Assembly: GCA_021773295.1 (NCBI GenBank)
Contig: JAJFKI010000014.1
Location: forward strand, 4,250 to 68,249
Direction of reading: 5' to 3'
Origin: Gammaproteobacteria bacterium
GTDB taxonomy: Bacteria; Pseudomonadota; Gammaproteobacteria; UBA1113
Length of the DNA: 64,000 bases
Below the pieces are notes generated by a model. That model saw only the letters and a list, made by a program, of their open reading frames with translations, was not told the DNA's origin and ran no database searches. Below are positions 59,956 to 61,519 of the stretch, piece after piece; the stretch's first letter is position 1; each line of letters begins with the position of its first letter. The position numbers were made by a program, and so were the translations under genes.

Positions 59956-60012
59956 ATGTTCATTTTAAGCCAACATCGTCATCATCATCACACCAAATGC
60001 TTGGCGGCGTAG
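59956..60012 (+). CDS. 18-codon His-rich leader peptide (MFILSQHRHHHHTKCLAA)
   Basis: ATG 59956 with a GGTGAG SD 6 nt upstream. Codons 7-12 are CAT CGT CAT CAT CAT CAC. TAG at 60010. Followed by alternative hairpins and a terminator upstream of the permease. Confidence 0.6.
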   Translation: MFILSQHRHHHHTKCLAA

Positions 60013-60024
60013 TCTTATCAATTT

Positions 60025-60101
60025 GGGAGGCAGGCAAGCCTCCTGTGAATATGCCCATCGTACCTCAGGAGCTTGTGTTAGGCTTCTCGAGGTTTTTTTT
60101 T
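60025..60101 (+). promoter_or_regulatory. attenuator: mutually exclusive hairpins ending in an intrinsic terminator
   Basis: Segment 1 GGGAGGC (60025-31) pairs with segment 2 GCCTCCT (60038-44). Segment 2 CTCCTG (60040-45) can instead pair with segment 3 CAGGAG (60066-71). Segment 3 CCTCAGGAGC (60063-72) pairs with segment 4 GCTTCTCGAGG (60082-92; 10 bp, one bulge, one G:U). This is followed by T9 (60093-60101), then the AGGAG SD and ATG 60113. Confidence 0.55.
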
Positions 60102-60112
60102 AGGAGCAAGGG

Positions 60113-61519
60113 ATGTTAAAGCCCGTTAAACGAAAAAGAGTGTTAAGTGTTTTTTCACTGGTGATGATAAATGTCATCGCCGTTGATAGTTTGCGGAGCT
60201 TACCTATTAGTGCTGAGTATGGGTTTGCCGTTATCCTCTTATATATCCTTGCTGCGATTTTCTTCTTTATCCCCACTGCATTAGTCGCTGCGGAATTAGC
60301 AACGGGTTGGCCGAAGACTGGGGGGCTTTATGTCTGGGTGAAAGAAGCCTTCGGTAAGCGTTGGGGGTTAGTCACCATTTGGATGCAGTGGATTTACAAT
60401 ATTGTTTGGTATCCAACGATTCTTTCTTTTATTGCAGCTACGCTCGCGTATTTAATCAATCCTGCACTCGCCGAAAACAAATATTATTTATTACCAATTG
60501 TCATTGGATCTTTTTGGGCAGCCACCATTGCCAATTGTTTTGGAATGAAAGTATCGAGCTTCATCAGTAGCGTGGGGGCCTTGTTTGGCACGATTATCCC
60601 CATGCTTACCATTGCTGGTCTTGGAATTCTATGGTGGTATTTAGGTAAACCTTTGCAAATCGATGCGTCATGGCACAATTTCACCCCCAAGATTGATTCC
60701 TTTAATGACTTAGCCTTTATTACCGCTCTGTTGTTTGGTTTGATTGGGATGGAAATGTCAGCCGTGCACGCTGAAGATGTGAAAGATCCGCAACGCAATT
60801 ATCCTAAGGCATTACTTTATTCAACCATTATAATCATTTTCAGCTTAGCCTTGGCATCGCTTGCCATTGCTATGGTCGTGCCCCATAAGGATTTAAGCTT
60901 AGTAACTGGTTTAATCGAAGCGTATCGTGTGTTCTTTAGCGCATTGCACATTGAATGGATGACACCGGTAATTGCAATTTTAATCATCGTTGGTGGATTG
61001 AGTGGTGTGTCGACCTGGGTGATTGGTCCTACTAAAGGGTTATTAGCTGCCACAGAAGATGGTTGTTTACCGGAGTTTTTTGCTTACACGAATAAGCGCG
61101 GTGCACCCGTCATACTTTTATTAATACAAGCCGTGATTTTTACATTACTTTGCTCTGTATTTTTAACCATGCCAACGGTAAATAGTAGTTACTGGATTTT
61201 ATCGGCATTAACGGCGCAACTCGCTATGATTGTTTACTTATTTATGTTTACTGCTGTGATTAAATTACGTCAATCACAACCAGAAAAAGAACGTGCCTTT
61301 AAAATTCCGGGTGGTATTATTGGCGTGTGTGTTGTGGCAATATTCGGCTTGCTCGCTTCTTTGTTTGCAATCGTCATCGGTTTTTTCCCCGCAACGGGAA
61401 TTCAAATCGACAGTGTGTTTGATTACGAATTATTTTTAATTGTAGGTATCGTTGTGTTTACGGTGGCGCCATTATTGTTGTATCGAGATCGCTCTCCACC
61501 GCCATCATCCCAGCCTTGA
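60113..61519 (+). CDS. APC-superfamily amino-acid permease/antiporter (GadC-like subgroup)
   Basis: About 12 predicted TM segments; N-terminal region AAELATGWPKTGGLYVWVKEAFG is typical of APC transporters; 468 aa. Confidence 0.85.
   Translation: MLKPVKRKRVLSVFSLVMINVIAVDSLRSLPISAEYGFAVILLYILAAIFFFIPTALVAAELATGWPKTGGLYVWVKEAFGKRWGLVTIWMQWIYNIVWYPTILSFIAATLAYLINPALAENKYYLLPIVIGSFWAATIANCFGMKVSSFISSVGALFGTIIPMLTIAGLGILWWYLGKPLQIDASWHNFTPKIDSFNDLAFITALLFGLIGMEMSAVHAEDVKDPQRNYPKALLYSTIIIIFSLALASLAIAMVVPHKDLSLVTGLIEAYRVFFSALHIEWMTPVIAILIIVGGLSGVSTWVIGPTKGLLAATEDGCLPEFFAYTNKRGAPVILLLIQAVIFTLLCSVFLTMPTVNSSYWILSALTAQLAMIVYLFMFTAVIKLRQSQPEKERAFKIPGGIIGVCVVAIFGLLASLFAIVIGFFPATGIQIDSVFDYELFLIVGIVVFTVAPLLLYRDRSPPPSSQP

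Follow-up and report, generated by a model that had tools for sequence, protein, structure and literature searches.

A probable hisL-type attenuator with a histidine-codon leader upstream of a GadC-like permease gene in a gammaproteobacterium

What controls an APC-family permease gene that directly follows a short, histidine-rich open reading frame (ORF)? The question is raised by contig JAJFKI010000014.1 of the gammaproteobacterial assembly GCA_021773295.1, of which a 64-kb stretch was analysed (64,000 nucleotides, hereafter the window), and in which an earlier note, made from the sequence alone, had proposed a histidine-sensing, ribosome-mediated transcription attenuator in front of the permease gene. 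That proposal is supported by homologous leaders before related permeases, by consensus hairpins predicted with RNAalifold, by compensatory changes in the paired segments, and by a full-length, sub-threshold match to the Rfam His_leader family, RF00514. We consider it probable, with good confidence, that the element in the window is a hisL-type ribosome-mediated transcription attenuator controlling the permease gene.

The leader ORF and its alternative hairpins

The 293-nt intergenic region that separates a divergent acetolactate-synthase-like gene from the permease gene contains the 18-codon ORF with Shine-Dalgarno (SD) sequence described in the earlier note (59956-60012; Table 1). Its regulatory His codons lie at 59974-76 and 59980-91, one isolated and four in tandem, which gives five His in six codons. 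Such a run (at least five His in six codons) occurs once in the six frames of the window, in this ORF, and 0.0 times per shuffled window. The leader is thus a short ORF, equipped with an SD, in which codons of the amino acid that would be sensed are clustered. The candidate promoter upstream was not picked up by a consensus promoter scan, because its -10 hexamer has only 3/6 matches; in the related loci L084 and L087 the corresponding position is taken by TTGACA-17-TACACT.

The hairpin segments are labelled A to F in Table 1. The protector hairpin C:D, GGGAGGC (60025-31) with GCCTCCT (60038-44), is present as first described and has a folding energy of -13.0 kcal/mol. The pairing of CTCCTG (60040-45) with CAGGAG (60066-71) is real as well and proved longer than had been thought: the D:E helix joins CAAGC-CUCCUG (60035-45) to CAGGAG-CUUG (60066-75) through ten pairs and one bulge (-12.2 kcal/mol). 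The terminator hairpin pairs 60062-75 with 60079-93 (14 pairs, -16.5 kcal/mol) and is followed by nine T residues (60093-60101) that run, as claimed, into the permease SD, AGGAG (60102-06), ahead of the permease ATG at 60113. An intrinsic terminator thus separates the leader ORF from the gene that it would regulate, all on one strand, and the D:E helix, which overlaps the 5' arm of the terminator, is an antiterminator mutually exclusive with it. The extra upstream pairing of CCAAAT with ATTTGG (60021-26) also exists, with CCAAAT at 59993-98, one base from the 59992-97 given before. The four mutually exclusive segments of the original scheme are real, but that scheme was incomplete: like hisL, the element is built from six segments. 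The loop of C:D also takes part, its remainder (to 60039) pairing with B; it is counted here under segment D, which starts at 60035.

The upstream neighbour of the leader is the divergent gene (58185-59819, minus strand), with no plus-strand gene upstream, and between U9 and the permease SD there is too little space for a separate permease promoter. The terminator can therefore act solely on the permease transcript.

Table 1. Features of the window element (window coordinates), leader peptides of related loci and segments compared among leaders
Feature	Sequence or description	Coordinates	Strand	Basis
Candidate sigma-70 promoter	TTGACA (59897-902), 17-nt spacer, TAGGTT (59920-25)	59897..59925	+	candidate, read from sequence
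SD-like sequence of leader ORF	GGTGAG, 6 bases before ATG	59944..59949	+	read from sequence
Leader peptide ORF	MFILSQHRHHHHTKCLAA + stop, 18 codons; ATG 59956, TAG 60010-60012	59956..60012	+	translation
Segment A	GCCAACAU; pairs with 59997-60005 when leader untranslated, His codons in loop	59969..59976	+	ribosome-free folds
Segment B	AUGCUUGGCGGCG UAG UCUUAUCA, stop codon inside; partner A or C	59997..60020	+	ribosome-masked folds
Segment C	GGGAGGC 5' arm of protector hairpin C:D, plus first three loop bases	60024..60034	+	folds, covariation
Segment D	CAAGCCUCCUG; 3' arm of C:D (60038-44) or 5' arm of antiterminator D:E	60035..60045	+	folds, covariation
Segment E	terminator 5' arm; 60066-75 is antiterminator 3' arm	60062..60075	+	folds, terminator scan
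Segment F and U9 tail	terminator 3' arm (60079-93), U9 (60093-60101)	60079..60101	+	terminator scan
Regulated gene	SD AGGAG (60102-06) and 468-aa GadC-like APC permease (ATG 60113)	60102..61519	+	Pfam, TIGRFAM, PDB matches
Leader peptide, L172	MQRQHHHHTHT			
Leader peptide, L087	MILQDSNNIVHLHHHHSHMLV			
Leader peptide, L084	..HLYHHRHYHTMV			
Leader peptide, L163	..KHHLHHHYHMMV			
Leader peptide, L167	..KHHAHHHYHMMV			
Leader peptide, L165	..FLHHHHMMV			
Leader peptide, L168	..IHHHRHMMV..			
Leader peptide, L056	MLRHFHHHSHIIV			
Leader peptide, L002	MNNKHLHHSHRQLLACHRHA			
Leader peptide, L004	MKIFTTHHLLHGKPAKHA; only 3 His in 5 codons			
Segments, window	C GGGAGGC; D GCCUCCU; E CAGGAG			
Segments, L087	C GGAAGGC; D GCCUUCU; E CAGAAAG			
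Segments, L163	C GAAAGGC; D GCCUUUC; E UGAAAGG			

Leaders and covariation in relatives of the permease

To the 160 loci with permease relatives collected from genome and metagenome collections, 12 more were added by exact-protein look-ups; the named organisms among them are almost all Legionella species or Legionellales/Coxiellaceae-like metagenome-assembled genomes (MAGs). In 167 loci the 300 nt upstream of the permease start were scanned in a single pass for short ORFs with at least four His in seven codons. Such ORFs were found on the sense strand of 11 loci, the window included, and on the antisense strand of none; L172, found after the scan, adds one more. One of the 11, L108, has its His-run ORF 275-380 nt upstream, followed by unrelated sequence, and was judged unrelated. 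Histidine alone stands out: short ORFs upstream of this permease family show no clear sense-strand excess for other amino acids, and the Lys-enriched leaders (11 sense versus 3 antisense) are ascribed to AT-rich sequence. These counts bear on the possibility that a short ORF and some hairpins coincide by chance. Short hairpins are common, and the region as a whole folds with ordinary stability (z = -0.87), but the His run is unique and absent from the shuffled windows, the His-rich leader ORFs are confined to the sense strand, and the leaders are homologous and covary, so that the comparative data effectively refute coincidence, the least credible of the alternatives considered here.

Homologous leaders precede related permeases in L172, L084, L087, L163, L167, L165 and L168. 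Across these leaders the His codons persist, varying synonymously between CAU and CAC, and the remaining peptide diverges, which marks a regulatory-codon signature rather than a functional peptide. The layout of leader, hairpin and terminator seen in the window recurs in L172, L084 and L087; the His-codon run and hairpins that the earlier note had suggested looking for in orthologous loci are thus there, though with a patchy distribution. The closest leader-bearing relative is L172 (L172:452-603), with a permease 65% identical to that of the window, the same epmA-like gene downstream, and a leader 74% identical to the window leader by pairwise alignment. It has a switchable set of hairpins and a clean terminator with U6, and shares with the window the A:B helix GCCAAC/UUGGCG. 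The L084 and L087 permeases are 57% identical to that of the window, and for the window, L084 and L087 RNAalifold independently predicted the same pair of hairpins as a consensus, with a U-run after them. Both the regulatory codons and the alternative pairings are therefore conserved in related loci.

A histidine-rich micropeptide with a function of its own, for example in metal binding, could also be encoded by such an ORF, with its own terminator and with the permease expressed by incidental read-through. His-rich peptides can bind metals, and the ORF does have its own SD and a strong terminator. We regard this explanation as very improbable: comparison of the window, L172 and the L087 group shows no conservation of the peptide outside its His run, there is no space for a permease promoter between U9 and the SD, and the alternative pairings covary, which a simple peptide gene would not need.

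To assess the covariation itself, segments B to E of five leaders (window, L084, L087, L163 and L167) were aligned without gaps. For the read-through state, B:C plus D:E, 92% of cells were paired and 6 pairs were changed on both sides, against 40-62% paired and 0-1 such pairs in shifted-register controls; D:E alone accounts for 5 pairs changed on both sides across the five leaders. For C:D, 97.5% of cells were paired with 2 pairs changed on both sides, against 30-67.5% and 0-1 in the shifted-register controls. These figures are to be read with the sample in mind, which comprises 5 sequences from about three lineages, with hand-chosen segments and a structure derived from the same sequences. 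The same positions of B, C, D and E change together from leader to leader (Table 1), as expected if each segment has two alternative partners. As judged from the aligned sequences, compensatory changes preserve both mutually exclusive sets of pairings.

The alignment of RF00514 to the window element spans the entire model (1-126), on the correct strand, with 15.1 bits; the scores are 28.4 bits at L084 and 28.3 bits at L087, relative to a gathering threshold of 49 bits, and L172 gave no match to this family. The alignment blocks in common are the His run, UAGUCUU, the hairpin ugGgAGgc...gcCUcCca and a CCCuCGggaG-type terminator. UAGUCUU, which comprises the stop codon and the start of the post-stop part of segment B, is common to the RF00514 consensus, L084, L087, L163 and L167, and the GGRAGGC/GCCUYC pairing is likewise shared with the consensus. 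By sequence, the element looks like a remote relative of hisL, and it would work like hisL. At gathering thresholds the whole window contains no Rfam match, and no T-box or other riboswitch family matched in the window at either permissive or gathering thresholds.

The remaining leaders are more varied. Searching all loci with an nhmmer profile of the three most similar leaders returned nothing beyond the input sequences, and blastn of the leader gave just one weak match, to L087; the other leaders therefore had to be located by way of their His-rich ORFs. In L163 and L167 segments B to E are retained, but a canonical terminator is lacking. L165 and L168 have His-rich ORFs with only weak AU-rich candidate hairpins before a U-run, and for the His-rich ORFs of L003 and L056 a convincing terminator or switch was not assignable. 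Several side features were seen at these loci. Between the His leader and the permease of L163 (L163:781-820 and ~1130-1170) and of L167 (~925-965) is a repeat resembling repetitive extragenic palindromes or miniature inverted-repeat transposable elements (GAGATTCTTCAACCGCC..ACGGCGGCTTCAGAATGAC). L084 has a perfect 32-nt palindrome directly after the attenuator terminator (L084:1399-1430) and a separate long hairpin downstream of the permease (L084:3896-3982), which gave spurious matches to miRNA families (mir-1303, 36.8 bits).

A different arrangement is found in L002 (L002:2892-3003) and L004 (L004:2885-2997). Here it is the leader's stretch of His codons that pairs with the SD and start region of the permease (CACUUACAUCAUU with AUUGAUGUAAGUG in L002, AUCAUCUUC with GGAGAUGAU in L004), and the terminator is absent. 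A ribosome stalled on the His codons would expose the permease SD, and these two leaders would be a translational, SD-sequestering version of the same His control. Because this wiring is independent, it strengthens the view that the permease clade is expressed upon poor His-tRNA charging.

Ribosome position and the choice of fold

In the classical his attenuator, six segments form A:B, C:D and E:F when the leader is untranslated or fully translated, which leads to termination, and a ribosome stalled on the His codons allows B:C and D:E to form, which leads to read-through. The window leader can be modelled on this six-segment design. From the candidate promoter, transcription would probably start some 20 nt ahead of the leader ATG, and a ribosome would translate the 18-codon leader while RNA polymerase transcribes the next ~100 nt. 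With His-tRNA well charged, the ribosome would reach the UAG at 60010 and cover segment B (59997-60020), C (60024-31) would pair with D (60038-44), and E would be free for F, so that the 14-bp E:F hairpin with U9 would terminate transcription just before the permease SD. If the leader were untranslated, A would pair with B and termination would likewise follow. At low His-tRNA charging the ribosome would stall on the CAU/CAC run (59974-91) and cover A; the free B would occupy C and the C:D loop, D (60035-45) would then pair with E (60066-75), the terminator would not form in time, and the permease would be transcribed.

Co-transcriptional folding was modelled with truncated transcripts, ending at 60072 and 60080, in which the ribosome footprint was masked. 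A ribosome with the UAG in its A site has a footprint of roughly 59995-60022 and covers all of B; with the ribosome at the stop codon, C:D was the sole predicted structure until F is transcribed, and the terminator comes next. At transcript end 60072 the probability of C:D was 1.00 with the ribosome at the stop versus 0.53-0.83 with stalls at His9-His11, and at transcript end 60080 these stalls gave D:E a probability of 0.74-0.93. For the stalled ribosome the minimum-energy structure becomes B:C plus D:E once E is out and F is not yet transcribed. In outline, the model thus indicates which fold each ribosome position would favour: the stop codon the terminator, and a stall on the His codons the antiterminator. 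The same analysis gave a clean switch for L172.

Folding under ribosome masks, which the earlier note had put forward as a check, agreed with the switch model for truncated transcripts, but at full length it brought out the first of several observations that weigh against a histidine-responsive attenuator. In equilibrium folds of the complete leader, C:D and the terminator persist under every ribosome mask; because the terminated fold is always more stable at full length, the switch would have to be kinetic, as in hisL. When the transcript ends at 60080, D:E prevails (P = 0.66) even with the ribosome at the stop, so the two ribosome states are only partly discriminated at that point. The simple B:C hairpin of the window is weak (-3.3 kcal/mol, versus -10.1 in L084/L087) and is the main weakness of the model for the window copy. 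The whole-leader fold energy (59940-60115) is ordinary, as given above; the evidence for the element rests on its specific parts and their conservation, not on bulk stability. The RF00514 score is far below the gathering threshold, and the small covariation sample counts on the same side. The permease, too, is by sequence closest to Glu/gamma-aminobutyrate (GABA) and Tyr/tyramine antiporters, which speaks against histidine as its substrate. Finally, the distribution of the leader is patchy. It is missing from the loci with the most similar permeases, L001, L081 and L164 (70-73% identity), and likewise from L161, L166, L169, L170 and L171 and from several members of the L087 clade; L162 is cut by a contig end. 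In the leaderless L001, L081, L164, L161, L166, L169, L170 and L171 the intergenic region is short or the permease lies directly behind another gene. In a neighbour-joining tree all leader-bearing loci fall in the first third of the leaf order, among loci titled mostly as MAGs rather than as named Legionella species.

Two of the alternatives draw on these observations. According to one, the element is an attenuator relic, in decay or unable to switch, whose terminator always fires or leaks and leaves the permease effectively constitutive or silent. The weak B:C of the window against the strong one of L084/L087, the loss or absence of the element in the closest relatives, and the lack of a recognisable terminator in L163 and L167 would all suit a relic. 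The window copy nevertheless has its leader ORF, SD, His run, C:D, D:E, terminator and U9 intact. Its B:C is also stronger when the composite pairing is considered (59999-60016 with 60025-39; GCUUG/CAAGC plus GUCUU/GGGAG), at about -9.6 kcal/mol; in L084/L087 and L163/L167, B:C is a plain 9-bp helix (UAGUCUUCU/GGAAGGCUG; -10.1 and -8.1 kcal/mol, respectively). Since, moreover, the antiterminated fold is the minimum-energy structure once E is transcribed, and L172 switches cleanly in the same analysis, we think a relic unlikely.

According to the other, the leader is a genuine terminator-based regulator that answers to a different effector, such as a protein, a small RNA, a riboswitch ligand or Rho, and the His-rich ORF is incidental or untranslated. 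The terminator is solid by itself, the equilibrium fold does not change with the ribosome masks, and overall fold stability is ordinary, all of which a different effector would accommodate. This explanation, to which we give slightly less credence than to a relic, leaves it unexplained why the His codons are the conserved part across relatives, with synonymous CAU/CAC changes, while the rest of the peptide diverges, why the leader ORF has an SD and sits in the register of the hisL model, and why L002 and L004 tie His codons to the permease SD through a different structure; no Rfam family reached threshold in the window either. An attenuator of the hisL type that reads His-tRNA charging remains the reading that we favour.

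The permease, its neighbours and known regulatory systems

The permease matches Pfam AA_permease_2 (E = 2e-70), and its closest solved structure is GadC 4DJI (E = 1e-64). It scores 468 bits with TIGR03813 and 442 bits with NF053662, below the GadC equivalog cut-offs of 650 and 640 bits, and also matches the Tyr/tyramine antiporter model; it is an equivalog of neither GadC nor the Tyr/tyramine antiporter. E. coli GadC is its best full-length sequence match. The two differ in that the window permease falls below the equivalog cut-offs and has no gadA/gadB decarboxylase gene beside it, its neighbours being the divergent acetolactate-synthase-like gene and the epmA-like gene, and in that the regulatory logic of the window would point to histidine uptake rather than acid-resistance antiport. 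Induction by histidine starvation implies net histidine uptake, and from the His-specific leaders and their regulatory logic it is reasonable to predict that the permease is a histidine importer induced by histidine starvation.

The histidine-degradation genes reported earlier in the window were confirmed. hutI (8907-10121, minus strand) and hutG (10132-11121, plus strand) are neighbours in divergent orientation (8907-11121 together), about 50 kb from the leader, and each scores above its NCBIfam equivalog cut-off. Their link to the permease is only circumstantial, because an attenuator answers protein-synthesis demand and not catabolic induction.

The surroundings of the permease gene comprise, on the minus strand, an acetolactate-synthase-like thiamine pyrophosphate enzyme followed by an aldehyde dehydrogenase (56730-59819). 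The same acetolactate-synthase-like enzyme is divergently paired with the permease in the leaderless loci L001, L011, L164 and L170, across an intergenic region of ~100-350 nt that is shortest in L170, L001 and L164. A weak match to CRISPR-DR10 (59767-59803, minus strand; 19.7 bits, E = 0.099), a single copy inside the 5' end of the acetolactate-synthase-like coding sequence, was judged a chance match. At the other side, an ORF that reaches the window end (62543-63994, minus strand) matches the C-terminal portion of a type-IV coupling protein of the TrbC/DotL type (216 bits; cut-off 800), a result that would agree with a Legionellales-like organism having a Dot/Icm-type system.

If the attenuator is confirmed, a widespread, uncharacterised clade of GadC-like "amino acid antiporters" of Legionella-like intracellular bacteria would gain histidine as a substrate that can be tested. 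The range of hisL-type attenuators would also reach past biosynthetic operons and take in an order whose his operon is reportedly controlled by a repressor (PMC9413887), and there would be a natural comparison set in which one His-codon sensor, on the same gene family, has two outputs, a terminator and a sequestered SD. The element marks an annotation gap as well: standard pipelines would miss the window element, because nothing in the window reaches the Rfam gathering threshold. The understanding of attenuation itself is unchanged by it. More tentatively, and on balance doubtfully, an enterobacterial-type hisL module (UAGUCUU/GGRAGGC) may have been recruited in Legionellales onto an importer gene in place of the biosynthetic operon and rebuilt at least twice, with a terminator design in the window, L172 and L084/L087 and an SD-sequestering design in L002 and L004. 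If this were true, the GadC-like permease clade would be a previously unrecognised family of starvation-induced histidine importers, and the importer would be the main His-tRNA-sensing output in intracellular bacteria that may lack histidine synthesis or repress it differently.

The earlier note had thought the coupling of a His attenuator to a transporter gene notable. The coupling is supported, but it is not without precedent. From histidine attenuators and T-boxes, Vitreschak et al. reportedly predicted the transporter families YuiF, YvsH and LysQ in 2004. In those cases, as in the window, a cis-acting RNA in the 5' leader of a transporter gene would couple uptake to His-tRNA charging, and the substrate of the transporter is deduced from that RNA. 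The window differs in that the transporter belongs to the GadC-like APC branch and to another taxon, and in that the RNA is of the proteobacterial hisL type, neither a T-box nor a Firmicutes-type attenuator. For Firmicutes hisXYZ and yuiF, His T-boxes and novel attenuators are known from comparative genomics (PMC9413887), and the Rfam amino-acid leaders act mostly on biosynthetic operons (PMC3766115). In the literature no report of this attenuator element in Legionellales was found; the Legionella his operon is reportedly under a HisR repressor rather than an attenuator (PMC9413887). The kind of mechanism is known, and histidine attenuators and T-boxes on transporters have been predicted before; what is new is the target, a GadC-like permease, and the lineage, Legionellales.

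In SD-sequestering leader-peptide attenuators the comparison holds for L002 and L004, whose His stretch pairs with the permease SD, whereas the window element is terminator-based and its SD, just 3' of the U-run, lies in no conserved helix. The closest parallel is hisL itself, the attenuator of the histidine operon in enterobacteria and other Gammaproteobacteria, in which ribosome-mediated his attenuation is textbook knowledge (PMC1183508, PMC9413887). RF00514 and the window element both have a short leader ORF with tandem His codons, a six-segment layout with the stop codon inside segment B in the context UAGUCUU, a C:D hairpin of the form GGRAGGC/GCCUYC, and a GC-rich terminator followed by a U-run. 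Unlike hisL, the window element lies upstream of an APC permease gene, which it would regulate, and not of a histidine biosynthesis operon; its leader has only five His codons (one isolated, four tandem), its A:B region and spacers differ, and elements of its type occur in Legionellales-like bacteria.

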